A stretch of DNA of 63,767 nt, the filler included, from Folioceros fuciformis (taxonomy: Eukaryota): NCBI GenBank assembly GCA_049999805.1. It is 5 parts of 4 records of this genome, joined end to end, with 100 filler letters (N's around TTAATTAATTAA, not from the genome) between each part and the next. Parts side by side here need not be neighbours in the genome. Positions count along the whole stretch, not along the records: positions 1 to 18,092 come from JBNGIO010005682.1; 4 more parts are not named here. One strand, written 5' to 3'. Both the position numbers and the translations under genes were made by a program. Shown here piece after piece: positions 1,238-56,755 of this stretch. The notes beneath the pieces were generated by a model. The model did no database searches, was not told where the DNA came from, and saw nothing but the letters and a program-made list of their open reading frames with translations. Positions within the stretch are counted from its first letter, which is position 1, and each line of letters starts with the position of its first letter.

Positions 1238-2058
1238 CTACATTACTCTGATTAGTTGGGGCTGGATTCACTTCTTGTAGGCAAGAGGGTGCAAGTTGCA
1301 CTACTGGCTTGTGAAAGTCAAGGTTTGCCAGTCGTACAGCCCACAAATTGGCGCCAAGCCACAATTGGCAATGTGCTGGTGGACAACCGTGGCAGCCACG
1401 TGCTGGTGAATGGGTTTGCGCCTAGAGTAGTGTTGTTGGACACATGAGCACAACCATTTATCATAGGAAAGGCTCTAGCTGCCAGGCTACAACTGGAAGG
1501 CAGTGCTTTGCAGCCGTCCCCCTAGAATATTCGCACAGCATTAGGAGCGATTGCGGCTGTCAAAGGGGAAACCACCCAACCAGTCAAGATCACTTTGAAG
1601 CCCAACACAGCGGATGAGGTGAGCTTGACGGTGTGCTGCCTAGTCACTAGAGCCACCAATTATGACATTCTGTTGGGATAGGAAGTTTTGTTCCCTCTAG
1701 GAGTTTCTATTGACAACTGGACAGAACATGCCTTTTACAGGCCAGGTTGGCAACAAGGGGGAAAGCGCATTGCTTACCTGCCGCTAGATTTGCATGGCAC
1801 CACACAAGCAGCCGAGGCCACACTAGTGGTAAGGCAAGCCTGCATGGTGCAGATCTAGCCATGGGAGGATGGGACAATGCCCTCATTACCACAAGACCAC
1901 CTCACTCAAGTATGGCTAGCTAAGTATGGGGAGGACGAAGACATTCTTGTCCCTGCCCTTGAAGAAGATGCACTGGTCCCATCTGGAGTCTTCATAGCTA
2001 GCGAGGGCCGTCTACAGCAAGCACAGGAGACTATCACTCGTGTCATGCAAGTACTGCA
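1238..2058 (+). pseudogene. Decayed Gypsy-type aspartic protease plus linker, related to the DNMT-bearing element at 8800-10839
   Basis: Reads VVLLDT*AQP (LLDTG active site with a stop) ... CLVTRATNYDILLG*EVLFPLGVSIDNWTEHAFY, then EGRLQQAQETITRVMQVL. This is colinear with 9260-9700. Cut by a Copia LTR at 2059. Confidence 0.75.
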
Positions 2059-2213
2059 TGCTAGAAGAAAAGATGCTAGTGCACAAGTTGCATAAAATGA
2101 CAATTAATTAAACTCAACCAAACAAAAAGGTATTATATACAAAGTGTCTTTTCATAACTATGGTTAATTAACCCTAAGGTAGGTTATACTAAAATAACCC
2201 CTTATTATTAACA
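2059..2213 (-). repeat. 3' LTR of Copia 2059-8370
   Basis: TGCTAGAAG...TATTAACA, adjacent to the PPT. Confidence 0.95.
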
Positions 2214-2821
2214 CTCCCACTTAACCTACTCTTAGGTTAAAGGTAGAATCCCTCTGAGGTTAAAAGTAAAAAAAAAACTTAACCACCGGGAAAACTTCAT
2301 AACGGAACGGTGTCACGCAACGGAACGGAACAGAAAAACCCCAGAGAACGTGCAGCGGGAAATTAAAGCCGCATAAACTTGCACATGCGGAAACCAACTC
2401 ACGAAATCCCCACGGCGATTTGCACACGCACGGCCGCTACACGAGAACGGCCCACAACGAGAACACATGCGCGGCACATAACACACAGAGCACGAAGCCA
2501 GCTTGTGATCCGCGAGTCCTCTACAGGATATCGCGATGCCGCCGCAAGGCACCCATCCAGCAATCCGGCGCAGGACTTGTCCTGCTGCCTCGCAAGCGCG
2601 GCGCGATCCCGCTGCTGGTTCAGCTCGGGCTGATGAAATGCCAGAAGGCTCACAACCCAGCCATCCAGAGATTGAGGAACGACGCAGGCTAACCTCGTCC
2701 TCGTTCTTGCTCTGCTCTCGATCTGATCACCTTTGCTTTCGGTCTTGGCAGGTCTCGCGGAGTGCTGTTGGTTCACGCTCACCATCTCATCACGTTCAGG
2801 CTCAGCACCTGCAGGGCTTCC

Positions 2822-3018
2822 ATGGCGCGGACTAAGCAGAAAAAGAGGCGCCAAGGCCAGCCCGCTGTGGAGGAAGAGTGTGAGGAGACCATCAGCACTG
2901 AAGCATCGAGTGAGAAGTGGTGGCCGACGCAGGCGAACCGAAACCAGATTGTTCACTTGCTCCAAACCTCGCAGAAGTGTGAGGAAATTGAGAACCTCCT
3001 CAAATCAGCCAGGCTGCG
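2822..3018 (+). CDS. Antisense ORF in the Copia 3' region beginning MARTKQKKRRQG, running into an N gap
   Basis: ATG in good context (TCCATGGCG). Open for 65 codons until the gap. No evidence of expression. Confidence 0.3.
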
Positions 3019-3118
3019 NNNNNNNNNNNNNNNNNNNNNNNNNNNNNNNNNNNNNNNNNNNNNNNNNNNNNNNNNNNNNNNNNNNNNNNNNNNNNNNNNN
3101 NNNNNNNNNNNNNNNNNN

Positions 3119-4797
3119 TTTGGTAGTCCTTTTGTTAGGAGATCAGCTGTGTTATCTTCAGTGTTCACATATTCAACTTTAACCAGTCCTCTCTCAGCCA
3201 CATCTCTTATATAGTGATGGTATAATTCGATGTGCTTTGTTCGAGCATGAAACCGGGGGTTGGACACAAGGGCAATAGTAGACATGTTGTCACATTTCAG
3301 CTGAGTTGATCCAACTTGTGTTTGTTGTACAGAATCAAGGAATTGGCGCTCCCACTCATCTTCTTTACATGCATCTGTTAAGGCCTTGTATTCAGCCTCA
3401 GTGGAGGACAAAGCTAACGATGTTTGCTTTTTGCAGCTCCAGCTGACAACACCTGAAGCCAAGATAAAGCAGTATACTGAAAGGCTCCTCCTAGTGTCAG
3501 AATCAGCTGCCCAATCAGCATCAACAAAAGAGGTCAGTATAAATTTATTATGTCCACTAGCTGTATAGTGAAGTCCCCAATTTAGTGTGCCTCTTAAATA
3601 CCGATAAATTCTCTTAACTGCTGACCAATGAGTTCTCCCAGGTGCCTTCAAGAAAACAATGCTAACAGCATAGGAAATATCTGGACGGGTCCAGTTAGCA
3701 AGGAAAATCAAGCAACCAACGGCTTCAGCATATGGAACAGTAGCCATATCAGTAAGTTCTTCAGAACTTTGACGAGATTGCACTGCTGTCAATTTTTCTC
3801 CCACTGCTGAAGGCGTAGTGACTGGTCTTGCTTCAGCTAAATTAAACCGTTTGAGTATTTCCATTATATATTTGGTCTGATGTAAGATTACCACTCCCTT
3901 GTCACGATGTCTCAGAATTTGAATACCCAAGCAATATTGCAGCTCACCTTGGTCAGTCATCTCAAACTCTGCCCTCGGCATGTCTTCGACTTTAGATAGT
4001 AAAGTCATATTGTTAGTAACAAGGATGGCATCATCCACATACAAGGCTAATATAACAAACTTGCTGTCTTCTGAAAAGAAGAAAACATTGGAGTCTGCAG
4101 GTGACTGTACAAAGCCAAGCTTCTGAAGGTATTTCACAATTCGTTTATACCAAGCTCGAGGACTTTGCTTTAATCCATAAATAGTTTTAAGTAGCTTACA
4201 TACTTTATTTGGATATTTCTTACTAACAAACCCCTCTGGCTGTTGCATGTACAGGGTTTCTTCAAGCTCTCCATGAAGAAAAGCGGTACACACGTCCATT
4301 TGGTGAACTTCCAAGTTATATTCAGCTGCCATAGCAAGGAGAATTCTAACAAATGGGGGTTTAACAAAAGGTGAGAAGGTATCACCATAATCCAAACCAG
4401 GTATTTGACTAAACCCTCTCGCTACAAGTCTTGATTTGTAACGTGCAACTGTGCCATCTGATTTGAGCTTTGTTTTAAAAGCCCATTTACAGCTGATTGG
4501 CTTATGCCCAGGTGGCAACTCCTCTAACACCCATGTGTTGTTTTTTACTAAGGAATTAAATTCATCATCAATGGAGATTCGCCACTTATCACCATCAGGG
4601 CCATTGATAGCCTCTGAATAGGATTGGGGGTCAGGTCTCACGTCAGGTACATATATTTCAGCAATATGGGCCTGTCTGAAATCAACTGATTCATATGGTT
4701 TCTCTAACCAATTCTCACGTGTACGCCTCTCTCTCATAGGATAACGAGGTTGATCCTGGATTTGGGCTTGTGGAACTTGAGGTAAGACCTCTGGCAC
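3119..4797 (-). CDS. Copia reverse transcriptase and RNase H
   Basis: Motifs RYKSRLVARGFSQ, QMDVCTAFLHG, YGLKQSPRAW, LYVDD, DADWAAD, SSTEAEY, DNMSTI, RTKHIE, ADLLTK. Confidence 0.93.
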
Positions 4798-4977
4798 AAT
4801 TTTAGCTGTACTGTGTGTAGAATGTTGAGAGGNNNNNNNNNNNNNNNNNNNNNNNNNNNNNNNNNNNNNNNNNNNNNNNNNNNNNNNNNNNNNNNNNNNN
4901 NNNNNNNNNNNNNNNNNNNNNNNNNNNNNNNNCTCAAGGTCACCCTCAGCATCTTCATCTTGTATTTGATTAAAATG

Positions 4978-7356
4978 CTATTGTATATTTGAGCCATCTT
5001 CTGAATAAGACAGGTCTTCATGAGCATCTTCTACAGATGTTGAAGCTTCAGGACGTGGTGAAGACAACTCTTCAAATGTCACACTCCTAGCTAAGGTAAT
5101 AGCTGAAGTATTGGAGTCAAATAATTTATATGCCTTAGATTCTTCAGAATAGCCTAGGAAAATTAGAGCCTTTGCCCTATCATCTAACTTCCTGCGTTTC
5201 TGTTGAGGAATAAAGGCAAATGCAAGGGAACCAAAAACTCTTAGGTGAAGCAAGCTTGGTTTTCTTCCCCAGAATGATTCATAGGGAGTTTTATCAGGCA
5301 CGGACTTTGTCAACACTCTATTTAGAATGTAAGTTGCTGTGACTATAGCCTGAGCCCAGAAACGCTTTGAAAGTCCTGCCCATGAAAGCATGCTTCGAGT
5401 CATTCCCATAAGTGTTTGGTTCTTGCGTTCTGCCACACCATTTTGCTGTTGCGTATATGGTATGGAAAATTGCCTTGTGATTCCAAACTGATCAAATAGG
5501 GAGTCATATTTGTGACCTACAAATTCACCTCCATTATCTGATCTCATACACTTGACTAACTTTCCAGTTTGCCTTTGTACCATAGGTATCCAGGATGATA
5601 TCTTGTCAAAAGCATCACTTTTCTGTTTAAGAGGAAAGGTCCAAGTGTACCTACTGAAATCATCAGTTAAGGTTAAGTAGTACTCCGCTCCTCCTAGCGA
5701 AGGTACCTGTATCTTCCCAGCAATGTCCATGTGAATCAATCCTAGAACGCAATCAGCTCTTGTAGCATTTTTGTTCTTGAAAGGAAGCTCCTTTTGTTTA
5801 GAGAGTACACATGACTTGCAGACTGGAAGGTGCTTAAAGCATGAAGGTAACTTTTCTTTATAATAGTCACCTGTGGACATTAAGTCTAGCTTGACCTTAT
5901 TTACATGTCCAAGTCTAGCATGCCATAGATTTGCTAGAGACTTAGATGTAGCAACATTCACAGTTGGACTATGATCTCCCACTGAAAGCTGATAGAGATC
6001 ATTCTTAAGTAACCCTCTAGCTAAACACACACTAGGTTGTGTTATGCTATACAAACAGCAGGAGTCCTTCTCAAAGCGAAAAGCAAACTCTGACATTTGT
6101 GTAAGTGCTCTAATTGACAACAGGTTCTTTGACATGTCAGGAACATAAAGTACATCCTGCAATTCAAGAGTGAATTCACTAGAGACAGGTACACTTACTG
6201 TTCCACTTCCTAGTACCTTCACAGCACGTGAATCTCCCACATACACTGACTGTGGGAATGATTGTCTAATGAAGGTAGTGAACAGGTGGCGATTGTTACA
6301 CACATGTGAGGTCGCCCTTGAGTCAATGAACCAAAGAGAGGGATGCTCTCTTGTTGAAGTCAAGCAGACGGTCAACACTGTTGAGCTGCTCTTTTGAGCA
6401 ATTTGGGTACTAGAAGATTTGTTGCCTCTTTCAGCAACATGAGCTTCAAGTTTTGGCTCCTTGCGAGCTTCTCCTGATTTCTTCTTATGACACTCTCTTT
6501 CCCAGTGGCCAGGGAGCTGACACCAATTACAATTGCCTTGCCTTTTGGGATTTCCAGGTGGGGTTTTCTTACCCTTACCCTTCCCCTTCCCAAAAGGCTT
6601 CTTCATTGCAACTAACACTTTCTCTGTTCTAACCTTTGTAGAACCAGAAGGCCGATGGCGAGTCTGCTCCTCTTGATGGAGAGCTCCCACTAGCTCATTG
6701 AAAGTGAGGGTGGCAGCACCACCTGCTTTAACTGCGGCAACAGAGGTGCGCAAGGCTACATTCTGTGTGGACACAAAGTTTTGATAGGAGGAAGGAAGAC
6801 TGGACAACAATTGTGCAACTGTGTCTATATGAGATACAGTTCCACCAAGCTGAACAATTTGTTGTCTCAAGTAGCGGAAGCGGGTAATGTGAGCACTCAT
6901 TGTATCTCCCTCCTTCATTCTAAGTCCATAGAATTCATTCCTAGCAGCAACAAGAGTCAATATATTCCTTACTTGATATGTATCATGTAGTTGTGTCCAG
7001 ACATCTGCTGCAGTTGGTAGAAACTCCACCTCCATAGCTGTGGCCTCATCAAGGCCTGAAAGTAGCATAGCAAATGCCAGTTTGTTACCCTTTTTCCATT
7101 TATCAATTTCAGTTTGTTGTGCTGCAGGGCCAGGTTGTTCAAAGGTGCCATCCACAAATTCCAGAACATCACGGGCATCAAGAAGGGCCTTCATTTTGGC
7201 ACGCCAACTCTCAAATCGCTGTGGCTTGCCATCAAAGCGGTCCTTTTCTTTGAAGTCACCAGAGAATGCAGACGTTGTAGCAGAAGACATGTTTGCTGAC
7301 CCACCAAGTAAGCTAGAAGCAGCCAATTGTGAAATAAGCTGATCTAAAGCAGACAT
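4978..7356 (-). CDS. Copia Gag-protease-integrase polyprotein
   Basis: Zn knuckle CNWCQLPGHWEREC, protease WFIDSRATSH (DSG mutated), LWHARLGH...CKSC, and integrase HMDI/SDNGGEF/QQNGVAERKN. Confidence 0.93.
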   Translation of the reverse strand: MSALDQLISQLAASSLLGGSANMSSATTSAFSGDFKEKDRFDGKPQRFESWRAKMKALLDARDVLEFVDGTFEQPGPAAQQTEIDKWKKGNKLAFAMLLSGLDEATAMEVEFLPTAADVWTQLHDTYQVRNILTLVAARNEFYGLRMKEGDTMSAHITRFRYLRQQIVQLGGTVSHIDTVAQLLSSLPSSYQNFVSTQNVALRTSVAAVKAGGAATLTFNELVGALHQEEQTRHRPSGSTKVRTEKVLVAMKKPFGKGKGKGKKTPPGNPKRQGNCNWCQLPGHWERECHKKKSGEARKEPKLEAHVAERGNKSSSTQIAQKSSSTVLTVCLTSTREHPSLWFIDSRATSHVCNNRHLFTTFIRQSFPQSVYVGDSRAVKVLGSGTVSVPVSSEFTLELQDVLYVPDMSKNLLSIRALTQMSEFAFRFEKDSCCLYSITQPSVCLARGLLKNDLYQLSVGDHSPTVNVATSKSLANLWHARLGHVNKVKLDLMSTGDYYKEKLPSCFKHLPVCKSCVLSKQKELPFKNKNATRADCVLGLIHMDIAGKIQVPSLGGAEYYLTLTDDFSRYTWTFPLKQKSDAFDKISSWIPMVQRQTGKLVKCMRSDNGGEFVGHKYDSLFDQFGITRQFSIPYTQQQNGVAERKNQTLMGMTRSMLSWAGLSKRFWAQAIVTATYILNRVLTKSVPDKTPYESFWGRKPSLLHLRVFGSLAFAFIPQQKRRKLDDRAKALIFLGYSEESKAYKLFDSNTSAITLARSVTFEELSSPRPEASTSVEDAHEDLSYSEDGSNIQ

Positions 7357-7622
7357 GTGCAGACAAAGTGGAAAAAGGAGCAGATATGAAGAGGCCTAGC
7401 ACTACAAACACATGAAGAGGCATGTGAGGTAAGCAAAAGACCCATTCAATGTGAAAAGCTACCCTAATTTAATTAAAAATAGAATTAAATTAAATTAAAG
7501 GTCAGAACCCTAACTGCCAACCAATCAAAAGGAACTAACTTTGGCAGTTGCTGGTGCTTTTTGCAGGCACCCTTTCATCACAACCTTTCAGGACAGGCTG
7601 TGGCTTTTGCTATCTGAAGGTA

Positions 7623-8078
7623 TCAACTAGATTGATGACCCAAATTTGCTTGAAAATTAGCAAAATTGGAGTGATTAGAAGTAGACTGTGCAGGTGCAAT
7701 TTGAAATTCATACAATCTATTAACTGTTGCAGAAACATCTTGCAAAATTAACAGCAAAAATTCCAAACGATCCTCCAAAGCCTCAATTCTTTCAGGTACT
7801 TGATCAAGCCAAACCAGCCTGTTGTTCATTTGTTGGAGAAGACGCCTCTGAATCTCTCTAGCACCTGAATTGACCCTCTCAGCAGCAATTCTGAGGGAAT
7901 TGTGTTGTGCAGGATGCAAGCGAGGAGGTGGGCACCTACTACCCCTAGCACAGTGAAACTGTGGGTTTGTAGAGTAGAATGTAGGTGACTGTAGTGGGGA
8001 TTGCTGCTCTCTCTGCAATCTTTGGCCTTGTGAAGGCTTGAAGCTAGAAGAACAATAGCTTCCCCTTCTCCTCGTCAT
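7623..8078 (-). CDS. Extra sense ORF (151 aa) between PBS and gag, coiled-coil-like
   Basis: Uninterrupted ATG-TAG frame, MTRRRG...LDQVPERIEALEDRLEFLLLILQDVSATVNRL. Confidence 0.45.
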   Translation of the reverse strand: MTRRRGSYCSSSFKPSQGQRLQREQQSPLQSPTFYSTNPQFHCARGSRCPPPRLHPAQHNSLRIAAERVNSGAREIQRRLLQQMNNRLVWLDQVPERIEALEDRLEFLLLILQDVSATVNRLYEFQIAPAQSTSNHSNFANFQANLGHQSS

Positions 8079-8215
8079 CCTACACAAAATTCACTAGCAT
8101 AAATGCATTTTAAAACTCTAAGTAGCACTCTATGCTAGACAATAGAAGTAGAGACAATCTTCTTCTACAATTAGCCATAGGACTACTAGATAAAAATGCA
8201 TGGGCTCTGATACCA

Positions 8216-8370
8216 TGCTAGAAAAAAAGATGCTAGTGCACAAGTTGCATAAAAATGACAATTAATTAAACTCAACCAAAAAAAAGGTATTATATACAAA
8301 GTGTCTTTTCATAACTATGGTTAATTAACCCTAAGGTAGGTTATACTAAAATAACCCCTTATTATTAACA
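8216..8370 (-). repeat. 5' LTR of Copia 2059-8370
   Basis: Near-identical to 2059-2213 and adjacent to the PBS at 8204-8215. Confidence 0.95.
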
Positions 8371-8799
8371 CCGTGTCCTTTCCAAAGTTCTCTTGAATAC
8401 CATTCTTACCACCCCTGAACTTGCCTCCTTATAACGTTCCATTGGCACTGTGCTAGAAGCGCATTTTAGACAAATCGTGCACGAGTGATTGGGAATGGAT
8501 CCCTAAGGTAACCTTTCCGTCTGGTGTGTTCTTCTGGAACTTCGCTTAGTGAATGGACCATTGCTGACCATGCTCGTACCCACTTTGCCTCGTTGCCCGC
8601 TCCGACTCCCACTTCTCATATCGCCCTCGCGATACCCATCCCTCTCTGTTGGAGTCGCCCGCTGGTGCAACGCGCTTACTGACACTGCGAGTTGCCTAGT
8701 CGGACTAGTTGGCCCGCTTGCTGCTCTGGTGAAGTTGAGTTCCTGTACTTTGACCAGCTTGCCTCCTTGCCGCCTTATTAGATGTCAGAGGCTTTGCCT

Positions 8800-9771
8800 T
8801 GAGAGAGTACGACACTCACCCAAGCCAGCCAGTGTTGCTGAACTGGTCAGAGACAAGGAGGAGGATTACGACTCACCACATCAAGTGTGTGTCGCCAACC
8901 GAATGGAGGCTAACATGGCAATTGCTGAGTTACCATAGATGTGGGTAGCGCAACATTTATACCCACCAGTGTTGGAGACAACAACAAGGCCAGTCACTTG
9001 GCAATGAGGTGTGAGGGCGCTCATGACCCAATCGTTTACATCACTGCCGCCAAGAAGTGCAACCCTAGTCCGAGGGCAAGAGCATTCCACCTTGGAAGGA
9101 AGGTCACAAGCAATAGACAAGCCTCCATTGTAGCCGCAAGTGGTAGTCAATGGGCCAGTCTACTTGATGCCTAGGGCTTTCATTGCAGAACAACTATATG
9201 AGAAACAAACTGGCATCCCTCTATTTTCTTTGCAACACAGGGCTAGGACATTGAGTCTTCCATGCCTAGTGACAACAGCCACGAACTATGATGCGCTGTT
9301 GGGGCAAGAATTCTTATTTCCACAAGGTTTGATTGTGGACAATTGGACAGAGCAGGCATACTATCGTTCAGATTGGAAGCAAGGAAGGAGGGAGAAGGCT
9401 GGCATACTTATCCTTCAATTGCATGACATGTCAAAGGCCGACACAGCTACACTTGTGGATCCACAAGCCTGTACGCGGTCGTGGTTAGTGAGGGAACACT
9501 GCTAGCTAACAACAATTTGCAAGATGAGGACCACGTGGAATCAGAGCAAGAGGATGAGAGCTTTGACAGCTACTCCAACAGCACCATAGCTACATGCAGA
9601 TTGACAGATCTGATCAAGGCCGCTCACCATTCCACACAGGTTGAAGGTGTGCTACAAGTTGCTCATGAGCATATCCAACATGTGCAAGCTCTATTGCAGC
9701 TAGGACTCAAGGACTCCATGCAAGAGCATGTTGTCAAGTCTCAAGTGATTGATTGGCCCATCCCAGCCGTT
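8800..9771 (+). pseudogene. Decayed Gypsy-type polyprotein segment (protease C-terminal half plus acidic linker)
   Basis: CLVTTATNYDALLGQEFLFPQGLIVDNWTEQAYYR matches the retropepsin D-x-L-L-G region at 1640-1740. The catalytic DTG part appears deleted. The left boundary is approximate. Confidence 0.65.
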
Positions 9772-10730
9772 GGCCTTTTTCTTGTGGAGCTGTTTGGTGG
9801 CATGTGTACTAGCCTAGAGGCTTTGCTAAAAGCATGCCTCCCTATTAGGCATTATGTATATTGCGAGAGCAGTGGGGAAGCACGGCAGATAGCTGCTCAT
9901 TGCTTACAGGAGGTCCGTAGTAGGTTCCCCACACAACTACCGGAGGCAACCTTAGCTGCCACATTCTCAGCACTGCCTCAAGACGTCAGGTACATCCAGC
10001 AAGGCCATATCTAGGCCTTGGGATCCATAGATGTGCTAATATCTGGGCGGGAATGCCAGGGGTTCTCCCAAGCAGGCACAAGAGCGGGGTTGGAGGACCA
10101 TCACACTGGATTCTTTCGAGACCTGCATGAGATCTTGGCATGGGTGCAACAGGAAAATCCACAGTGTGGTTATCTCCTTGAGAGCACCCCAGTGCAGCTT
10201 GACAAGAGAGACCCCGTGTAGCAGGACATGGCAGTCATGGAGCACCATCTTAGGGCTCCCTTTCTTTTAGATTCTATCCAGGTGGGCAATTATGCGCACT
10301 GTTTGTGCAACTATTGGACCAACCTCATCCTTGGTTCAGTCTTGGTGCTTGCGCTTCGCAACACAAAGCGGGATCCCACCTTGCGACTACAGGATGTGAT
10401 GGATGTAGATCATGAACCCAGGCCTGTGCTCACTAGTGAGCGACCACCCTGGTATCCAACCAACACACCTGGTCAGCCTCACAAAACATTGCCTACCTTG
10501 GTGAGCTTTCCTAGTTCCTTTGCCCATCACGGTAATGGCGATGGACTGTTGTACAACATTGGCACAAAGCAATGGGAAGAGCCCCGCATTGACGAACATG
10601 AGCAGATCATGGGCTTTCCACCACATGCCACAACAACACCGAAGGTTATTGTCTCTCAACGTTGTGTCGCTATCGGTCAAGCTATGGAATTGCACGCCAT
10701 CACTTGGCTTGTCAGCTTATGCTTGGCTTT
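9772..10730 (+). pseudogene. Dnmt3-like C5 cytosine DNA methyltransferase, copy 1 (two in-frame stops)
   Basis: Motif I LVELFGG; motif III-IV QDVRYIQQGHI*ALGSIDVLISGRECQGFS; GLEDHHTGFF; VI YLLEST; VIII YAHCLCNYWTN; IX EHEQIMGFP; X QRCVAIGQAM. All are in one frame and in canonical order. Confidence 0.88.
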
Positions 10731-10839
10731 CCAGCACATGCCACGGCAACACCGAAGGTTATCGTCTCTCAACGTTGTGCTGCTATCGGTCGAGCTATGG
10801 ACTTGCACACCGTCACTTGGCTTGTCAGCTTATGCTAGG
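10612..10839 (+). repeat. 113-bp tandem duplication of the DNMT motif IX-X tail
   Basis: CACATGCCAC at 10622 and 10735. Both units are preceded by GGCTTTCCA. Confidence 0.85.
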
Positions 10840-10977
10840 TGTAAACGAAAAAATGTTTAGAAATCCCTTGCCCAAGTGCGAGACTTGGTGTTTTTTTTGC
10901 TTTTGGTAAGTTGGGTGTAAAATCGGCTTAGGTTGGGAATAGGCCGAGTTATTTATACTCAAGACTTCCTTGGGTCT
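10840..10977 (+). mobile_element. Terminal fragment of a third copy of the large TG-ended element (continues at 15072-15220)
   Basis: Aligns to 31777-31920. Its continuation at 15072-15220 aligns to 31916-32040 (GGTGCTACTTG; AAGCCTATA-AAGGA-polyC). Confidence 0.75.
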
Positions 10978-11809
10978 TGTGGAGTAAACTATTGTGTCCG
11001 AGGACACCGCGAGGCCCACACAAACCCTTTATGTCATTGTAGCCATGGGATTCGCTCCCAAGGGAATGATTTGTGCCAAGTAACATAGGTTTCTTCTACT
11101 CCTGACTCTTACCTAGGTTAGGCCCTATCCACTATCGTTTCTACTACCTACTACTCCCTACCGCTACCCCTCAGTTAGCCTAGCTACCGCGGACCCTACT
11201 CTTCGACTCCGGGTCCTACCCTATGACCGCGGTCACTGGTTTCACGACTGGTAGTGGTCTCCACGATCGTGGTGGGTCCCACTCAAAACCCTAACTAATA
11301 TTTACTGGCACAGGCACCACTGCAGGTTTCCACCACGGATTTTTGCCCCAGGGGCTTCTAGATTCACTGATCTGGTCTTATTGGATGCTCCTCACACATG
11401 CAAATGCTAATCCTTCAGAAACAAGACCCTGCGGATCAGCCACACTCTCTCACACACCCATGCATTACTCTCCACACATGCAAAGCACACAAGAACTCTG
11501 GTGTACACTTATTCCTCACAAGTCTGTCTCCAAGTGTCGTCAATCTCCCAACAAAGTCCACAAATCTCCAACGATTCCTTAGCAATCCTTCACAACACCT
11601 CACAAGCTTCCACAATATTCAATAGTCCTTCGCACGCATCCGGAAATCTCTTCAAAATCCTTCAGAACTCACATCCCAGCTTCAGCACTCTTTCTCAATC
11701 ATCTAGCAATTTCTTAGCAATTCTCTTTAGTCTCAACAATCTTGCCGCAATCTCAGCAATCCTCCAAGGTCCTCCTCAATCTCTGAGCTCACTCTTCCGC
11801 AGCCAACGG

Positions 11810-12295
11810 TTCAGGGGATAAGGGAAGGAGAAACTCTCCCTCCACTGCGTGCAACGGGCGGATTCGTCCCCCTCTGCTCGGCTTACGGCTAGTCAGTCTC
11901 CCTCTCACACACTCACTCCTTCACCCTTCTCCTCCTTACCCACTCGCTCTTCACTCGCCCCTTCTCGCTCACTTCAACTCCTTATCTTCTCACACACACT
12001 CTTCTTCACACACGCTTTTCCCCACCGGATTTGAAATGCAGCCAAAGGGTCAGGAAATAAGGGAAGGAGGCGCTCCCCTTCCACCCCGCGCAACTGGCGG
12101 ATTCGTCCCCCTCTTCTCGGCTATGGACCACAGACAGCCGTTCAAGGAATAAGGGAAGGAGAAGTTCTCCCTCCACTCCGCGCATCGGACTGATTCGTCC
12201 CCCTCACCACTCACCGTAGAACACAACTAGCAATGCAGGGAATAAGGGAAGGTGACCTTCCACTCAGCAGGCTCTTGCTGATTCGTCCCCCTTAC
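11810..12295. repeat. Four dispersed ~60-nt modules in copy A
   Basis: Consensus GGAATAAGGGAAGGAG-N4/5-CTCCC(T)TCCAC...GGCGGATTCGTCCCCCT at ~11813, 12053, 12147 and 12238. Confidence 0.8.
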
Positions 12296-12695
12296 CACCA
12301 ATTGTGGAGCAAAAATCTCTCGACCACCCTTATGAGCGTCGCGCACATGCTGCCCACCTAGACATCCCCAATCCAGCTAAGGACAACGCGAGGACCTTGA
12401 CTGAGAAAAGTTGCCAACTTTTGCTGATTAGTGAGGCATCAACATGCCTCTTTGTACACATGCCAGGCGGAATCGTAGCCGCCATTAAGTTCAATCTCAA
12501 GCAGTCATGTGCTCTTAATTATGAGCGGCATCAGGTCAAAGAAAGCATCTTCACTAAATGAAAAGATCTTACTAAATGTTATTATAAGATGCAATGAATT
12601 CTGGCCTATCCTATCGCCGCGCTCGCCTCCTATCTGGCCTTCACGTAACCCTCCCCTTGCCGCCAAATCCCTGGGCCCTCCTTCCTCTTTGCTAG

Positions 12696-14900
12696 TTAGG
12701 CAGATCCTCCCATAAAACCTCTATCTCGCTCTCGCTGCCGCCTGTTGCTGAGGACCATCATGGGTTCTTGCTCCACCCATGCCTGCGCTTCTTCCTCTGT
12801 TAGTTCCTCCAAGACTGCCTCCGAATAACGAGGCAATCCCCACACCCGGAAGTAGTGGGAGAAGCATCCCCTGCGAGTCCTTAGTTGTAGGCAGTACGCC
12901 CTTGTCCCTCCTATTTCCACACGCACATGGACAGTCAGGTTAAGTACACGGTCCCCATTCTCATACAAGCCAAGAACATAAGTTTCCTCATCCAGATGTT
13001 GTAATACAATCTGGCCCCCTACTGCAGATGAGGTGCTTACCCCCTCTTCCCGTGGGCTACCCCAAACTGCCTGTCTTCTGCTCTCCAGGGTACTGGGCTG
13101 CCGCTATTCCCTGCCTCGTCCTCCTTGTGCGAATCACCATCCTAGCTCTTCTGGTTGCGGGCTCCACGACTGCTGCTGCTTCCTCTACCCTGGTAGGGCT
13201 GTCCTCTACTGGCGTGGCCTCCTTCTGATCGGTAGCGGCTTCGGCTACCTTGGTCGCGGACCTGCTACTCCGTTTGACTCTCCCTTTCCCTTTCACCCGG
13301 CTCCGGGCCTCATCGCGTTCCCATTTATAACGGTCTGCGAGTTTCTGAACCTTCTCCACTGCGCCCGCCTCCTGCTCCTGTGCTCTCAACAGCTCATGTT
13401 GCATTTCCTGGTTGGCTTCGTGGACCTCCTTGACTTGAATCAGGAGCAGTTCTTGCTAATCTTTCATGGCCTGCATTTCCTCCCGAGCTCGGTGTCCTTC
13501 CTCCTGCGCCTGTTCCTTTGCTGCACTCAAGGCTTGTCGAGCTTCCTCCACTTGCTCCCGCCTTGCTTCTGCCTTAGACAGCTTGGCCTGCACCTCCTCT
13601 TCTTGCTGCCCTTGCATGCTCCGCCAAGTGAGCGCCCGTGCAGCCTGGTCTAGCATATCTGCCTACGCCTGGACCATGGCCGCTGTCAGGCCTAGTAAAT
13701 CCACCTATTGGGGCGTGCCTCCAGTAGCCATTCCTTTGTCCAGGATCCCCCTTCCCAGCAGTGCGCGTACTCTGGCCAAATCCTCCTCCTGCAAATTCGC
13801 CACCAAGGGGGTGGCCCTGAAGATCTCTTCCCACCCCGAAAAGAGTTCTTCCCCCGGGGTCAGCCCTAACTTCTCTGCCACCTCAGCCGGTTTTGCCCCC
13901 TTCGCTGGCGCTGATTCCTTGGGTTCGGTTGAGGGGGTGCTCGGTTGCCTGTCCCCTGTTTTTCGGGCAGACTCCTGCAGCGTCGAATCTACTGCTGCCC
14001 TGGTAACGTGCGCACTGACCTTCCTCCTCTTCGCGGGGGTCTTTTGTCCGACCCCTGCCTTTCGCTTCCTGCTGACTGTCACCTCCTCCTCTGGACTCCC
14101 CGTTGCTCTAGACTCCTAGCTGCTGGACTCGACCTCCTCCTTGGGCTCCTCCGGCTTCTACTTGACCTCCCGGACAGGCTTCCACATGTGCAGGGAAGCC
14201 ACCACTTCTAACTCTGGCATATTATTAGTATAGGAATACAGATGGACCAGGAAGGGTGAGATCACAAACGGATAGGGGGTCGGAGAAGTCAAATTCTGCC
14301 TCTTCTAGATAATTTTCCCCCAGTCGATCCTGCTCCCCTTGATAACTTCGTGTAGGAACAGCAGCATGTGGTTCGACAGGTAGTCTTGCTTCCTGGGCTG
14401 CAAAAGCATAGGAGCCACCTAGCCAGACCCATGAGCTGGGCGGTCGCCATCTCTTGCGCCAGCCAGTTGTTGGCCTCCCTTCCGATTCCGGATTTGAACA
14501 GTGCCGCTACCGCCACCGTGGTGCTGTGCTTCCTCAGGGACTCAATCACAAGTCCCCCGGCTTCCTCTTGACTCTGCCCATACACTGTCTAATCAACTCT
14601 ACATCTAAGTCTTGGGGTCTCTCCCTGGTCCCTTCTCCTTTGGTCTTGTTCTGCAATCGGTGAGTGCACTCTTGCACTAGAGCGGGGGTCACATGGTTCC
14701 ACCTCTTGGCCATGAACCCGAGGCCTAGCTCCTCTACCAGCCCTCCGACTCTGGCCTTCCAATGGTCCATGTTGGGCCAGAGGGCTACCTCCACCTAGGG
14801 CAACGGCTCAAGCGCGGCATCCCTGAACGACTCTACCTGCGCCACGTATGTGGTTACTCCCTCCATCGGTCTCCGCTCCACAGTCGTCCTGGGTGCCGCC
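12696..14900 (-). pseudogene. Decayed long ORF of unknown function in copy A
   Basis: Fragments VALWPNMDHWKAR, RIDWGK, ISPFLVHLY, RKRK/KRRK, a long heptad region and YENGDRVLNLTVHV join into one frame across stops and frameshifts. Homologous to 32075-34697. Confidence 0.7.
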
Positions 14901-15231
14901 GCCTCTCTTGATACTAGCACAATACCTCTTGAGACCCAAGGAGATCTTGAGCATAATACCCCGGCCGATTCCCAACCTAAGCCGCTTTCGCACCCATCTT
15001 ACCAAAAAAAACAAAAAAAACACCAAGTCTCGCCCTTGGTCAGGGGAATTCTAAACATTTTTCTGTTCACAGGTCCCGAGGTTTTGAGTTTAGGAGTAGG
15101 GTTGACCAATAATTGGTCCGTGGACCAAGTCAAGAGGGGTGCTACTTGTTCCTTGGCCCTCGGTCCTTGAGCAAGTCCTAAAAAGCCTATACAAGGAGCC
15201 CCCCCCCCCCATAGCTTTATGGCTAGATATT

Positions 15232-18092
15232 TGTTGAGTTATCGAGCTCTATATAAGCTAAACTCATGTGGTGTTAGTTATCCCGGTTGGGTTCATACTA
15301 AACTAGTTCTAGTTATTAATGAACTTAAGATAGTGTAGATTATTTCATATTGAACTTGGAAGTTGTGTAGCCCTAAATGTACTACTTAAATGGACACCTC
15401 GGACCTCCATAGTAAGACAGCGGTGATGTGTATTGTTTTTGGTTGTGACCACCAATACCACCCTCTCTTCTCTCCTCTCCTCTCCTACACTTGCACATAG
15501 ACTGGAATCGATCCTATTGACATGGACATGGTATCAGAGCTTGAGAGCCAGATTGCCAAGCATAGCCCAGAGCCGAAGAGCCAGGTGGCTACACATGAGG
15601 GCGGTGCAAGATCGGCGTAGGAGGTGCTGCAAGAGGCAGCAAGAGTGCACACCAAGAGCTGGAGTAGCTACGAGGAGTTGGAGCAGCTTGAAGGGAGATC
15701 GGCAGCAAGCGTCCCGGCAGCTAACTCTCATATTGGTGTGTGCAGGAAGTGAGAAGAAGGGCAACAAGGCCCTATCAGCTTACTGGACGGGATGTTGATC
15801 CCCGAAGCTGTGGAAGGGCTGACAGGTGTAGGCAACAGCTGCAGTAGCCTCAGTAGCTGCAAGAAAGTGTGCTAACCCTAGCTTGGCAGCAGGGAAGGAA
15901 TTGACAAGAAATCTCACGGGAGCTTTGTTGGCAGATCGTCAAGTGTCTGTAAGGACAATCTGATTCATGCAAGGCAGCGTGATTTCGCACCAAATTGCTC
16001 TTAGGAAGAAGAGACTTAAGGTCTTGTGAGTAAAACTCCACTCAGAAGCAATCTCTTTCTTGCAGACATTTATCAGGTGTGAGTACTCAAGAAGGATTGA
16101 GTGTCAACCTTGAGTGGTGGCAAGAATGGCCAGTAACAATATTAACCAGATCGTGCAAGAGAAGCTGGACAAAAACAACTTCCATGCCTGGAAGTTTCGT
16201 TTTACAAACTTTCTTATGGGAAAGGGTTATTGGGACTACATTGAGGGGGAGCATGAAAAACCCCCTGTAGTACTTGAATAGAATGCAACAGCGGAGCAGA
16301 TTAAGGCGCTGAAGGATTGGAATCAAGGATCTCGGAAGGTCATGTATTGGCTGTCAATCAGCATTCATGACACCATGATTGGGCACATATAGGATGCAGA
16401 GTCACCCAAAGAAGCATGGGATGAGTTGGTCAAACTCTATGAGACCAACATGAAGGCAAGGAAACTACAGTTGAAGAATGACTTCAACACAATTATGAAG
16501 AAGAACTTATCAATCAATGAGTATGCGTTAAAGATCAAAGAGATAGTGGAATCCCTTGCGTCCATTGGTGTCAGTGTGGAAGATGACGACAAGGTCGAAG
16601 TTTGCTTACACGGGTTAACACCTGCCTATAAGCAGTTCAAGACTTCCATACAGACTCGAGAAAACATTCCCAATTTCTCAGACCTGATTTCTATGTTGAT
16701 CATAGAGGAGAAAAACCTAGGCGAGGAATCATCCTCTAAGCCTAAGGAAAACTCTGAGCAAGCCTTCTACTCTGGCAGAGGCAGAGGTAGAGCCCAAGGT
16801 GGTAGAGGGCAAAGAGGTGGTAGAGGTAGAAATTCCTACCAAAATCAGCAATAGAATCAGGAGTCCCAGTACAAGAGTACATGTGGAAGAGGAGAAAATT
16901 CTCGAGGCTAGGGGAGTCAAAGAGGACATGGAAATCAACAACAAAATGATGCAAATGCAGACAATAGTGGTTGCTGGACTTGTGGTAGATTAGACCACTT
17001 CAAAAGAGATTGTCCACAGAGAAATCAAGCAACAAGAGGCAGCAGAACAATTATGCCTCAAGCAGCAGTCAGAATGACTCGGACAACTTGTTTGTCATGC
17101 AGCATATGCTTAACTCTGTGTCTGCTAATGGATCTACCAATGGTGAGATTGTGTGGTATGTGGACTCAGGAGCTTCAAACCACATGACATCCCATGGGGA
17201 GTGGTTCAAAGAAATGCAGGTGCTTGACAAACCTGGATATGTGAAAACTGGAGATGACACAACACATGCAATTGTGCATACAAGAACTGTACCTTTGAAG
17301 ATGCAGGATGGCAAAGTGAAGTGCTTGATAGATGTTCTTCACGTACCCAACATCACGAAGAACTTGGTGTTAGTTGGGTAGATGGTTGAGCAAGGACTGC
17401 AGGTTAGGTTTACACCTACAGGACTCTTTGTTGAAGAGTGCAAGAAAGGCGCTCACCTGATTGCTCAAGGGCAGAAGGTTAGACAGATGTTCACCTTGAA
17501 CGTGGAGGTTCCTAAGCTGAAGTCAGCCATGTTTGCGAAGGTTAGGGTACAAAGATAGTGGCAGACTTAGAGATGTGGCACAAACGCATTGGACATGTAA
17601 ATGTGCAGAAGTTGAAGTCCATGCAACATCAGAAGGTTGTCACAGGCATACCCAACCTTACAGAAACTGGACTGCAAGGTGTATTATGTGAAGCATGTCA
17701 ACTTGGGAAACAGCCTAGGAATGCGTTCCCCCATGACAAACATGTCAGCAGATATGTGTTGGATGTTGTGCATTCAGATGTATGGGGTCCTACACAGACT
17801 GCATCAATCGGAGGATGCAAGTACTATGTGACCTTCATTGACGACCACACAAGGAAGGTGTGGGTCTATTTCATGAAAGAAAAAAGTGAAGTGATCACTC
17901 ATTTTCATACTTTCAAGGCGATGGTTGAGAAGCAGACAAGTAGGCACATCAAATGCCTAAGATCTGATGGAGGGGAAGAGTACTTCTCTAGAGAGTTCAG
18001 CAAATTCTTATCAGAACAGGGCATTCAACGGTAGTACTCATGTCATTATACGCCACAACAAAATGGAGTTGCAGAGCGCAAGAACAGGCACA
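15232..18092 (+). mobile_element. Ty1/Copia element, 5' part (truncated by scaffold end)
   Basis: LTR ends ...GACA at 15528; the TGTTGAG start at 15232 is tentative. Perfect PBS TGGTATCAGAGC at 15529-15540. Gag-PR-INT follows. Confidence 0.85.
16126..18092 (+). pseudogene. Copia gag-protease-integrase with multiple stops
   Basis: EKLDKNNFHAWKFR, CWTCGRLDHFKRDC, WYVDSGASNH, WHKRIGH, HSDVWGP, LRSDGGEEY, QQNGVAERKNRH. Confidence 0.9.
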
Positions 18093-19699: not shown

Positions 19700-21000
19700 A
19701 GTATACTCTGTTAAGAAATTTGTTAAGTGGAGATGCTTAAAAGTTTTATGAACTTGATAGTAAATAGTAAGCATGCTAAACCCATGAAGGAATTTTTCAA
19801 TCGATTAGAGATAAGGTTTCCATCAGTAAATGCTATAAAGATAGAAGAGTTGGCCAACTTGAAAAGAAGGCCTAATGAGACCGCGCTCATGTTTCACAAT
19901 CGAACTAGTCACTTGGTAATGGATACATGAATGCATAATGAGATGGAAATGTGTTTTAAATATGTTTGTAATTTGGATGAAGATATTGGGGAAGATGTGT
20001 TTAGAGAGTTGACATCATTATATGGAAAAACATAAATGTTGGAACAAGTTTTTCCAATTGCAGAGAAGCATGAGCAAGCAAGAGCATTGTTGAAAGCCAT
20101 GGGCAGGAAAGTTGGGGGAGATAGAAAGGGAGGTACATTTTTTACGGCGACACCTAGATACAATTATTTGGCCAGATCGAGACCAAGTTGGCAGTAGCAA
20201 ACAACACTAGGAGGATGGATAACAAATATATGAAGCTTGTTTTGAATGTGGAATCGGACAAAGGGATCAAATGTTTGAGGTGTGGGAGTGGTGCACATGT
20301 GATGATGGAATGCATGGTGAAAAAGGATGTAACTTGTAACCATTGTGGGAAAGGACGCTTGGAGAGGGTGTGTTAGCAGAAGCACTCCTCTCTCAGTCCT
20401 ACCAAGCTTGGACAAAGAGGGCAAAATGTTAAAAATGTCAAGCAGGTGCAAAAGGCTGGAAGGAGTCGGGTAGTGGGAACAAGTGAGGAGGTGATAAGCA
20501 ACCGTGTGGATAAGTCTCACAAAATGTTAGAATTGCGTATAGCAAATCTAAAAGCTAATATAGACAAATTGAAGGCTGCTAGTATTCAGAATGGGGTTAA
20601 AATCAAGGAAGTTAAGACTGTGGAAAAGAAGAAAGGAATGAATGAGCAGGAGGAGGCTTACAAAGAGTTTCAGTTGGATGCTTTTGTTTGTGAAATAGAG
20701 TATGAGAAGACTATGAATGTGTGGGGCATGTGGAAGACGGTCAATGCAAGGCTTGGAGGCAAGAGCATGGATCATGGAAGGAAAAATGCTTCAGGGAGAA
20801 AGTACCCTGAGTCATTTTAGGTTATGGATGTGGACCTAAACAATTTTAACACAAGGATGAGGGAGAAGACTGCAAGAGTGTTGGATCAGCATCGAGGTAA
20901 AAAGGTAACAGCCTTGCAGGGGGACTTGATCTTTTGTGTTTAAAATTGGTTGGAGTTATTTAGTAAGGCAAGAATAACAGAAGCAAAAATCCAAGAACTT
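19700..21000 (+). pseudogene. Decayed Gypsy-type gag with two zinc knuckles
   Basis: RFPSVNAIKIEELANLKRRPNETALMFHNR (gag MHR-like), then CLRCGSGAHVMMEC and CNHCGKGRLERVC. Boundaries are approximate. Confidence 0.65.
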
Positions 21001-21004
21001 TTGC

Positions 21005-21849
21005 AAGCCCAAGCTTTTTATTTCTCTGTTTGCTTGTTATACCCTCCACATAGGTGAAATCCGTATCAAAGCCCATTGCCCTCTCTCACTGGGTGACAGA
21101 ACATCCCACATATTCTTCGTGCTGTCAAATACCATTCCAGGTCCATCTCTTTTGAATGCATTAGCGTTTTCAAAGCTGACAAATGTCAGTAACGCCCTTC
21201 TAGGCTCACCCTTTTTACTTACACAATAAAAAGGATGTCTATCATCTAAAACCACCCGCCTACTTCTACGCCCTTCTTCCAAAATTTGATCCACTATAAA
21301 CTCCTCACTCCTTTGCCACTGATTTGCATGTCTTTGCAACAAATGCTTAGGCATCATGTTGTTCCAAAAACAACAAAGTTTGTGAGCCCTTGATCCAAAT
21401 TGCACTGCATCCAACTTTATAGGCTCTCCTAGATCATACTTAATCTCCTCAAAATCTTGTCTCAGCAACACCCTCTTATAGATGTGAGAGTCCACATTCT
21501 CAACTAAATACCCACATTTTGTCTTTTGACACCCTTGTATCAAATTGAGAATCCTTACCAACTCATAAAATAATACATATCTATAATCCATTAACCCTTT
21601 TCCTCTTCTTGTCATTGAGTGTCCCTGACACTCCCAACCCACCACTACAAGATCAATTTCTTCCACCATATGAAATTGCACCAATCCAATAAGCCTAACA
21701 TCTTGTGACCAAGTGGAAAATGCCTTCTTTACAGCCTCAATCTTCAACTACATTGGATACTTTTTACACAGCTTAAACAATTTGGCCTTTGCAATTGTCT
21801 GACAAACTTCATCTAGATCACAATAAATGTAACGTTTAATTGCATATCC
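21005..21849 (-). pseudogene. Dnmt3-like C5 cytosine methyltransferase, copy 2, C-terminal part (motifs II-X)
   Basis: GYAIKRYIYCDLDE; QDVRLIG; IDLVVVGWECQGHS; YLVENV; RAHKLCCFWNN. After a frameshift in a GA run: ERAMGFDTDFT and QRNKKLG. Confidence 0.88.
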
Positions 21850-27800: not shown

Positions 27801-28369
27801 CTTGCAGATGAAGGAGGGTGGAGCCCAATTTGCGCCGTGGCAAACCAATGTGCAGCCATTCTGTGTACCGACTAGTAGCAACCGCCGTTGGTCCAAGCTC
27901 AGGTGCTGCGAAGTAGAGAAGAAGAGAGTAGCTTCTGCCTGAATCGTGTTGGAGAGTCTGACGGCTGAGGGTAAGAGTGGCGGCGGGCGATCATCGACAG
28001 TAGGCGCATTTTGGGCAGCTTCAAGCTCTGCAATTACAGTGTCAAGGATTGTGACAACCTAGGCTAGCGCCACAATCAAGGTCTTAAGCGGCCGCCGAAT
28101 CCAAAAAAAAAGAAAAGTGGAGCGTAAGAGCAGCATTAGAAGTATTAACAGTATAAGATAGGACCTCAAGTGGGGGTGTTGAGAAATTTGGCCCTCCTTA
28201 TATAGCGTAAAATAATGTCAAACAGCTAACCTAAAATAAGTAGTTAGGATTAGAAGGTAGTTACACGAATAACCGTCGTGTGTCACCCAGGCGCGCACGC
28301 ACGAACCTACAAGAACTATGTGCGCTATTTTTCTTTAATGCAACCTTGTATTTTTTGTACACCGCGTTA
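21850..28369 (+). mobile_element. Complete Ty1/Copia LTR retrotransposon inserted in DNMT copy 2
   Basis: 193-bp LTRs at 21850-22042 and 28177-28369 (about 12 mismatches; TG...TA ends). PBS TGGTATTAGAGC at 22043-22054. PPT AAGTGGGGG at 28168-28176. TSD TATCC/TAACC. Confidence 0.95.
23175..27680 (+). pseudogene. Copia gag-pol with stops and frameshifts
   Basis: FKEKDR, CHWCGISGHWARNC, FVDSGASTH, HSDICGP, SDNGGEY, YKARLVARGF, LYVDD, DSDWA, SSTEAEY, ADLLTK. Confidence 0.92.
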
Positions 28370-28374
28370 TAACC

Positions 28375-28710
28375 AACAGCCAACATCGCTTCCAAACTAG
28401 ATGCAATTCTAGCAAACAACTCAACCACAACCAATCCATATGCAGACAAACTCAAAGTCACAAGTTTATTACACACAAGTTCCAATTTATAGATTGCCTC
28501 CTTTGTACAGGGTTGACTCTTATCATCCAACTGAAATTCAGCTTGCCTCTTTTCAAGTTCTCTAAAAATTCTAGCTAACACTCTAGCAACATCTGTTTTT
28601 ATCGAGTCATCCTCCACACTAATACTACTGCATTCCTTAGCACACAAATTTTGCATATGACACACAACCCACAACTTATCTTCTTCATCCTCCTCATCCA
28701 TCCCCTCAAA
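28375..28710 (-). pseudogene. DNMT copy 2, N-terminal part (acidic linker and motif I)
   Basis: GLVVVELFARIASSLEAMLAVG joins in frame to YAIKRYIY at 21849 once the Copia and one TSD are removed. Confidence 0.85.
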
Positions 28711-34697: not shown

Positions 34698-35094
34698 CCA
34701 GCGACAAGGAAGGAGAGTGCGGGGATTTTGCGGTCAGGGGAGGGGTACGCCGAGACTGGATAGGAGGCGAGCGTGGCAATAGGATAGGCCAGAATTCATT
34801 GCATCTTAGAGTTATATTTAGTTAAGATCTAGTGAAGATACTTTCTTGGACTTGATGCTGCTCGTAATTAAGAGCGCCTGATTGCTGGAAACTAGACTTC
34901 ATGGCGGCTACGATCCCGCCTGGTGAGTGTGTACAAAGAGGCATGTTGGTGCCTTGCTAATCAGCAAACAATCGGTGACTCGTTCTAGGCAAGGTCCCCG
35001 CGCTATCCATGACTAGACAAGAGAGGTCTAGGTGGGCAGTGCATGCGCGACGCGCCTGAGGGGAAGCCAAGAGTTTTTGCTCCACAATGAGCGG

Positions 35095-44760: not shown

Positions 44761-45020
44761 AAGGTATGTCCGTCCAAGTAGCTTATTTAGCCTAAAATCG
44801 ACATACATATCTTGAGAAAATAGTAGCCAAATGGACCAACTCTGCAATAGAGACCCGGATGGTGAGCCTAGAAAGGAATTACTATGGTGCTCAGTAGCCT
44901 AGGTCAATTCGTGGAGTAGGTTATCTAGAGCCGGAGTTCCATGGTGGCATGTCGTCCTTTGTGAACAGAAAAAGTCGTTTGTTTGTGCTTGATCTGGAGT
45001 CATGGGAGGCTAAGATTGGA

Positions 45021-56655: not shown

Positions 56656-56755
56656 NNNNNNNNNNNNNNNNNNNNNNNNNNNNNNNNNNNNNNNNNNNNN
56701 NNNNNNNNNNNNNNNNNNNNNNNNNNNNNNNNNNNNNNNNNNNNNNNNNNNNNNN

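Follow-up and report, generated by a model that had tools for sequence, protein, structure and literature searches.

The closest described counterpart of the element treated here is KnitGypsy-Dnmt3 of Klebsormidium nitens. According to the accessible part of the report on it (de Mendoza et al., 2018; PMC5890265), this element carries an intronless Dnmt3-type DNA methyltransferase (DNMT) in a Gypsy-type Pol open reading frame (ORF) and has DIRS-like repeats (A-coding-B-A...) around a Gypsy domain content. The same part of the report describes SymbioDIRS-Dnmt3 and SymbioLINE-Dnmt of Symbiodinium, and states that retrotransposon DNMTs methylate CG de novo. Here, we analyzed a stretch of 63,767 nucleotides (63.8 kb; hereafter, the window) of the Folioceros fuciformis assembly GCA_049999805.1, a eukaryotic, transposon-rich sequence with 15 runs of N, in which remnants of a protease, a linker, and a C5 cytosine methyltransferase occur at positions 8787–10839 (copy 1). 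Our reading, to which we assign a probability of about 0.8, is that this segment is a dead, doubly truncated protease–linker–DNMT fragment of a Ty3/Gypsy-type family, whose Gag-Pol has the order gag, protease (PR), DNMT, reverse transcriptase (RT), RNase H, integrase (INT), and PHD.

The fragment adds a new member, itself dead, to the known Gypsy-Dnmt3 kind. Like KnitGypsy-Dnmt3, as far as the accessible published description goes (the two were compared by this description, not by sequence), seven of 21 relatives of the window copy show an A...B-A-B arrangement. The window copy differs in being a dead fragment in another organism, and its named kin are from Closterium, not Klebsormidium; no K. 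nitens sequence surfaced in the protein searches with the family. The Symbiodinium elements are likewise retrotransposons that encode a C5 cytosine methyltransferase, and SymbioDIRS shares the A-coding-B-A layout, but in the described part they belong to the DIRS (tyrosine recombinase) and LINE classes, whereas the window family has a DDE integrase, a retropepsin, and a CCHC gag. Among solved structures, the animal DNMT3A, 3B, and 3C (PDB 2qrv, 6kda, and 8tci) gave the best profile matches and share wording with the family at motifs I, IV, VI, and VIII, but the family enzyme has no PWWP or ADD domain, mostly reads E-C-Q where the animal proteins read P-C-N/Q, and is embedded in a polyprotein.

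Copy 1 and the other copies in the window

Frame 1 of 9427–10860 (+) is open save for two in-frame TAG codons (10012–10014 and 10219–10221), and in an alignment with 13 relatives it carries motifs I, IV, VI, VIII, IX, and X of C5 cytosine methyltransferases in unpermuted order (Table 1). The intronless, unpermuted enzyme that the original prediction had placed at 8800–10839 is thereby recovered, along with the strings quoted for it: DVRYIQQGHI*ALGSIDVLISG (9982–10047), AHCLCNYWTN, EQIMGFP (within motif IX), and, further upstream, NYDALLG...IVDNWTE. The hidden Markov model of the Pfam family DNA_methylase (PF00145) matched the reconstructed copy 1 protein (P0001) at 24.4 bits against a cut-off of 22, a marginal match that covers the motif IV area only; it scored 21.4 bits when scanned inside a 3300-amino-acid (aa) frame, and relatives scored 36–46 bits. 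Using tblastn, the copy 1 DNMT matched relatives over approximately 330 residues with E-values of 1e-37 to 3e-53, the last of these for P0006. Because the Pfam score lies above the cut-off and the tblastn E-values are in this range, the match is not a chance one. The identity to the metagenomic locus L011, the closest relative of copy 1, was 42.9% over 331 aa, and a PDB search with the single copy 1 sequence gave weak matches to DNMT3C and DNMT3B (E = 0.013 to 0.1).

As had been claimed, the copy is dead. In addition to the two TAG codons, the step from the protease to the DNMT requires a frameshift, of which there is one, and a 113-bp tandem duplication breaks up motifs IX and X. Compared with the family, motif VI reads EST instead of ENV or ENT (N to S), and motif VIII reads CxC instead of RxR (R to C twice). 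The Pro-Cys dipeptide of motif IV was found in neither of the two window DNMT copies, in which Glu precedes the retained Cys. No reading frame able to yield an enzyme was found in copy 1; judged from the stops, the frameshift, the duplication, the lost catalytic-motif residues, and the lack of RT and INT, this copy does nothing.

The retropepsin-type sequence and acidic linker predicted ahead of the DNMT were also identified. A protease profile of type A relatives (those with DNMT between PR and RT; see below), built from the relatives only and without window sequence, matched 9248–9400 at profile positions 77–127 of 137 (independent E-value [i-E] 3e-10); in the whole window it matched here and at 1400–1786, and nowhere else. 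When the piece upstream of the copy 1 DNMT was searched using blastp, it matched the protease region just before the DNMT in 11 relatives (E = 2e-8 to 5e-4), and in a tblastx comparison the protease piece was 58% identical to L011 over 43 aa. The string NYDALLG...IVDNWTE lies in frame 2 of 9134–9505. The proteases of relatives have DTGA or DSGA followed by YD(V/I/L)LLG, and that of L011 reads VVLLDTGAQ...SYDVLIGQEALFPPGFTIDNWFEHAYY, near the window wording. Copy 1 retains NYDALLG alone; its active-site half was not detected by the profile, and neither Pfam nor the profile gave a significant protease match in 8787–9247. Relatives have a comparable, unconserved PR–DNMT spacer of about 90–180 aa.

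The fragment is truncated at both ends, at about 8787–8815 (5') and at 10840 (3'). On the 3' side, it is cut by a foreign insertion, a 4.2-kb element with inverted ends of about 130–140 bp (10840–10977 pairs with 15062–14932 at 84–86%). To examine the family in the same organism, contigs of two DNA runs (X1 and X2) were placed on the stretch at a likeness of at least 80%. In X1, 139 contigs were placed (10 at ≥ 99%, 12 at 95–99%, 40 at 90–95%, and 77 below 90%), and in X2, 188 contigs (12, 8, 58, and 110, respectively). The summed contig depth in X1, which is not equivalent to copy number, rose from 9.3 over 8372–8786 to 75–229 beyond 8787, with a loose end at 8815; over the bins of 8787–10778, depth was 33–229. 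The many distinct, diverged contigs thus indicate a repeated family, with its 5' edge in copy 1 near 8787–8815; further loose ends show that other copies in the reads depart from copy 1 near 10733. A sequence present in many copies in its organism is not a single processed copy of a host DNMT gene, one of the two cases that the original prediction had named as its refutation.

Transitions prevail among the differences between the diverged copies in the reads. The observed/expected ratio of CpG is 0.5 in the window and 0.4 in the fragment, and TpG and CpA are in excess over the whole window (1.25). Taken together, these base compositions and changes are the mark left on the repeats by cytosine methylation over a long time, and the R to C changes in motif VIII of copy 1 may reflect CpG decay. 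In a further run (X5, guessed to be RNA), three contigs touch the stretch, sharing 27–65 nt at < 90% identity. One of these, of 9251 nt, shares a 65-nt protease motif (window 9263–9327) at its positions 5085–5149, and its size and the position of the motif fit a full-length element of approximately 9.3 kb.

Two further copies of the family occur in the window. Copy 3 has a nearly whole retropepsin (profile positions 2–131 of 137, i-E 4e-32; tblastn to P0065, E = 2e-19); it reads VVLLDT followed by a stop where L011 has VVLLDTGAQ, and it also contains NYDILLG. Copy 2 was found by tblastn with the read-through protein of copy 1, which matched a second DNMT at 21103–21840 (−) with 29% identity. 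It contains VGWECQGHS (motif IV, 21616–21642), GYLVENVD, and AHKLCCFWNN, and its defects are one stop, a frameshift before motif IX, and a Copia insertion; no intact reading frame was found. Its match halts exactly at the Copia long terminal repeat (LTR), and its frame runs on across the excised Copia element into 28375–28500, so copy 2 was split by Copia. At its 3' end, copy 2 is abutted head to tail on the opposite strand by gag-like ORFs with a CCHC zinc knuckle (19727–20820, +), which match the gag part of the Closterium type A protein P0172 weakly (E = 7e-4).

Gag-Pol architecture and phylogeny of the relatives

A word-indexed protein search with the window DNMT returned a single relative, P0003. 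We then compared a profile built from P0003 and both window copies exhaustively with 1.84 billion representatives and obtained 6246 related proteins at E ≤ 1e-3, of which 405 reached E ≤ 1e-30; many of the proteins are 1000–3400 aa long. Pfam scans of members of this set revealed two architectures. In type A (P0148), a CCHC motif, an aspartyl protease (residues 796–888), and the DNMT (968–1294) are followed by RVT_1, RNase H, and integrase. In type B (P0012, P0009, P0019, and P0023), the order is RVT_1, RNase H, DNMT, integrase, and PHD. A domain map of the 150 top representatives agreed with type B in 98 cases and with type A in 7, and showed a DNMT only in 45, many of the last being short gene models. 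The named type A proteins are all from Closterium strains, and a named type B protein is from Haematococcus lacustris (KAJ9527864.1).

We also scanned JGI metagenome contigs with a motif IV pattern, confirmed 247 of 286 stretches, and kept 80 loci, in which the domain order was determined by local tblastn with domain queries. The 80 loci are colinear, in the order GAG-PR-DNMT-RT-RH-INT-PHD (RH, RNase H). RT follows the DNMT in 67 of the 80, and in 62 of the 63 that have at least 1300 bp downstream, the exception (L043) having RH-INT-PHD; INT follows it in 49 and PHD in 36. RT or RH precedes the DNMT in one locus, a tandem pair. In L011, a single frame interrupted by three stops gave Pfam matches to DNA_methylase, RVT_1, RNase H, integrase, and PHD, and the element is 9316 bp long with A...B-A-B split direct repeats. 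The A-coding-B-A-B layout was found in L008, L011, L032, L044, L046, L057, and L070 among the 21 loci that were compared with themselves, with repeat A of 236–331 bp (82–92% identity) and repeat B of 161–181 bp (86–95%). The other 14 showed no flanking pair, several of them being short of flank.

The type B elements P0012 and P0023 share the Gypsy backbone of type A, and their DNMT is homologous to that of type A (34% identity, E = 1e-56). They differ from type A in that their DNMT lies between RNase H and integrase rather than between protease and RT, and in that the two DNMTs form separate clades. Between L011 and P0012 or P0023, identity was 39–41% in RT-RH and 41–42% in INT-PHD, with the DNMT permuted, which is as alike as the type A members are to one another. 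A single Gypsy lineage with a PHD-type integrase thus bears the DNMT in two alternative places, between PR and RT in L011 and P0148 and between RNase H and INT in P0012, P0021, and P0023.

The DNMT domains also vary in motif IV. Among the 124 of 150 representatives in which motif IV was matched (26 were unmatched), the catalytic Cys is preceded by Glu in 82, by Pro in 39, and by a different residue in 3; in the 80 loci, which were selected by a pattern permitting either Glu or Pro, it is preceded by Glu in 73 and by Pro in 6. About two thirds of the DNMT family thus have Glu-Cys-Gln in place of the near-universal Pro-Cys-Gln, with the catalytic Cys retained.

In a FastTree phylogeny of 151 DNMT domains, both window copies fell in a 16-row clade (support 99) that takes in each of the seven type A rows and is free of type B. 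An IQ-TREE analysis (LG+C20 PMSF) was carried out with 43 rows: 13 type A representatives, 5 type A loci, 22 random type B sequences, P0003, and the 2 window copies. The requirement for a stop-free single high-scoring segment pair of at least 290 aa limited the loci in this tree to 5 of the 80. The A/B split had an ultrafast bootstrap (UFBoot) of 100 and an SH-aLRT of 98. The two window copies fell with type A, where copy 1 is the sister of L011 (99/98), and P0003 grouped with type B.

Against the PDB, the profile of the type A clade ranked DNMT3A/3B/3C first (2e-20), followed by tobacco DRM (1e-10), M.HhaI (4e-10), DRM2 (8e-8), and DNMT2 (7e-6), with no DNMT1 match at 1e-3 or better. This ranking agrees with the wording near Dnmt3 that had been noticed earlier, and it supports describing the window and family enzymes as Dnmt3-like, a term that here refers to the order of PDB profile matches. 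A look-up in the ESM Atlas gave scores under 0.8 only, which are leads at best.

Points against the interpretation and rival explanations

Several observations weigh against the assignment of copy 1 to a complete Gypsy-type family. The 63.8-kb window has no detectable RT, RNase H, integrase, PHD, or terminal repeat belonging to the DNMT family, the protease is not called by Pfam in the window, and no protease was demonstrated upstream of copy 2 by tblastx with L011 or by the protease profile. Even in the relatives, PR was detected before the DNMT in just 31 of the 80 loci at E ≤ 1e-5. Since no RT or INT of the family is detectable in the window, the linkage rests on relatives that are 30–43% identical in protein sequence and show no similarity at the nucleotide level; when six window pieces were compared with the 80 loci using blastn, no match was obtained.

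A six-frame Pfam scan of 7401–17302 detected nothing but the DNMT and, from about 16150 onward, a gag and protease of Copia type; tblastn with nine, then ten family polyproteins and tblastx with L011 on the window matched the protease and DNMT parts only, and neither repeat finding nor blastn revealed long terminal direct repeats around the window fragments. The statement in the original prediction that no RT or INT is visible here was accordingly borne out. The window has only PR and DNMT; the gag-PR-RT-RNase H-INT order was found in P0148, L011, and the 80 loci. The proposal of a Gypsy-type polyprotein with PR and DNMT holds for P0148, L011, and 62 of the 63 loci with room, all in other organisms, and on sequence grounds we regard it as supported through these relatives, not within this genome. 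The term LTR retrotransposon fits the Gypsy layout of the relatives, but not their termini, which in intact relatives are split direct repeats (A...B-A-B) and not plain LTRs.

The rival that survives best holds that the window copies are not truncated autonomous elements and belong to a non-autonomous PR-DNMT (or gag-PR-DNMT) derivative without RT, RH, and INT that is mobilized in trans. No RT lies downstream of any DNMT-bearing window piece, the DNMT stands alone in the 45 representatives mentioned above, among which short gene models are frequent, and the other read copies diverge from copy 1 near 10733, all of which speak for such a derivative. However, copy 1 ends at a foreign insertion (10840), copy 2 abuts an oppositely oriented gag, RT is present in nearly all loci with room for it, and the 9251-nt X5 contig has the protease motif approximately 4.1 kb from one end, as expected of a full-length element. 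We consider this derivative unlikely.

The copies might also be fragments of the type B architecture (RT-RNaseH-DNMT-INT-PHD) in which the protease-like piece was misread. Type B predominates among the top representatives, and the first protein match, P0003, groups with it, but both window copies are placed on the type A side at 100/98, the upstream piece matches protease and not RNase H, and no RNase H or INT lies beside the DNMT, which makes this reading highly improbable. A processed or duplicated host Dnmt3 gene that decayed beside an unrelated retropepsin remnant by chance is equally improbable and already contradicted: its intronless structure and closeness to DNMT3A/B/C would suit a host gene, but the protease–linker–DNMT order recurs in relatives, the DNMT groups in the tree with those of polyproteins, the organism has many diverged copies, and Pfam scans around copy 1 revealed no PWWP, ADD, or other companion domain of a host Dnmt3.

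Surrounding elements and meaning of the family

The coordinates of the features are summarized in Table 1. The 4.2-kb element at 10840–15071 has no Pfam family in any frame; it contains internal 85-bp repeat modules (11799–12214) and coiled-coil ORFs (12696–14115, −) without a Pfam match. A second element of this type lies inverted at 31777–36537, is about 80% identical, and has one inverted end that was found. We examined the 4.2-kb segment as a giant LTR of the DNMT element and rejected this idea: it has inverted ends of its own, and its copies are 80% alike, as against about 29% protein identity between the DNMTs.

Table 1. Positions of the DNMT family copies and of neighboring elements in the window
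Feature	Position	Strand	Sequence or basis
Copy 3: nearly whole retropepsin (1400–1786) and acidic linker, up to Copia LTR	1400–2056	+	Protease profile
Copia element between copy 3 and copy 1	2057–8371	−	LTR pair 2057–2214 / 8214–8371, 98% identical
Copy 1: 5' end of repeated fragment; possible decayed N-terminal protease half	8787–9247	+	Contig depth rise
Copy 1: retropepsin C-terminal half (NYDALLGQEFLFPQGLIVDNWTEQAYY)	9248–9400	+	Relative-built protease profile
Copy 1: acidic linker between PR and DNMT, in DNMT frame	9427–9771	+	Translation
Copy 1: Dnmt3-like C5 cytosine methyltransferase domain, dead	9772–10839	+	tblastn and motifs
Copy 1: motif I	9784	+	VELFGGM
Copy 1: motif IV	10042–10068	+	SGRECQGFS
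Copy 1: motif VI	10168	+	GYLLEST
Copy 1: motif VIII	10294–10323	+	AHCLCNYWTN
Copy 1: motif IX	10594–10620	+	EHEQIMGFP
Copy 1: motif X	10672	+	IGQAMELH
Copy 1: 113-bp tandem duplication over motifs IX–X	10601–10713 and 10714–10826	+	Repeat finding and blastn, 87–91% identity
4.2-kb element with inverted ends, interrupts 3' side of copy 1	10840–15071		blastn self-comparison
Copy 2: DNMT, after motif I to motif X	21002–21849	−	tblastn to P0003 residues 125–386, E = 2e-47
Copia insertion splitting copy 2	21850–28370	+	LTR pair 21850–22043 / 28177–28370, 94% identical
Copy 2: motif I (GLVVVELFARIASSLEAMLAV) and linker, beyond Copia	28375–28500	−	Translation; tblastn to P0170 residues 329–352

At least five Copia-type elements or fragments occur in the window: 2057–8371 (−), 21850–28370 (+), ~16150–18090 (+), 55149–55754 (+), and 58894–59595 (+). 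The first of these has 158-bp LTRs, a gag-PR-INT ORF at 4978–7395, and N runs at 3019–3118 and 4833–4932. No matching target-site duplication was found at this element, and its LTRs of 98% identity without such a duplication suggest recombination between two copies or a scaffolding join. The element that splits copy 2 has gag and protease ORFs at 23508–24783. The best matches of the intact Copia ORF in the window are 25–38% identical and include proteins of an orchid, a moth, a daisy-family plant, and Closterium, among others. Of the ten ORFs at 38.8–59.6 kb, two are Copia, and the remaining eight, seven of them at 38.8–51.8 kb and one at 56.6 kb, gave no Pfam match. Arrays of 52-bp and 36-bp tandem units, together with larger duplications of local sequence, were found at 44969–45352, 48483–48711, 56259–57152, and 1–715, and no Rfam families or tRNAs were detected in the window.

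Intact relatives would produce the DNMT within Pol, from which the protease of the element would cut it free. A de novo enzyme of the Dnmt3 type could then methylate the cDNA of the element or a new insertion, and self-methylation of the cDNA is speculation at this stage. The PHD finger behind the integrase may read histone tails and steer integration, by analogy with chromodomain integrases, in which a chromatin-reading domain plays this role.

In the literature searched, with supplements outside the search, no report of DNMT-bearing LTR elements was found for Closterium, Zygnematophyceae, or Haematococcus. Such elements are on record there for dinoflagellates and one charophyte, and a multi-copy family is now added in another organism. 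The Gypsy-Dnmt3 kind, known from one alga, is far more widespread than published: there are thousands of relatives, the enzyme occupies either of two places in one Gypsy backbone, and the near-universal P-C-Q motif is replaced by E-C-Q in the majority.

A broader proposal, which we put forward tentatively and hold to be rather doubtful as a whole, is that the host represents a lineage without earlier reported DNMT retrotransposons, possibly a land plant, with dozens of diverged copies and perhaps a transcribed full-length element. More generally, the fragment would belong to a very large superfamily of Gypsy elements with a PHD-type integrase that is spread over the green lineage and has so far gone undescribed. 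In this superfamily, an E-C-Q Dnmt3-like domain would have moved between two positions in Pol, and its members occur in algae of both the streptophytes (Closterium) and the chlorophytes (Haematococcus).

The window copy itself is a fossil only. If the host is a land plant, the family would contradict the view, expressed in the accessible part of one publication (PMC6338049), that higher plants lost transposon-encoded methylases. In a wider sense, transposons that bear DNMTs blur the line between the parasite and the silencing machinery of its host.

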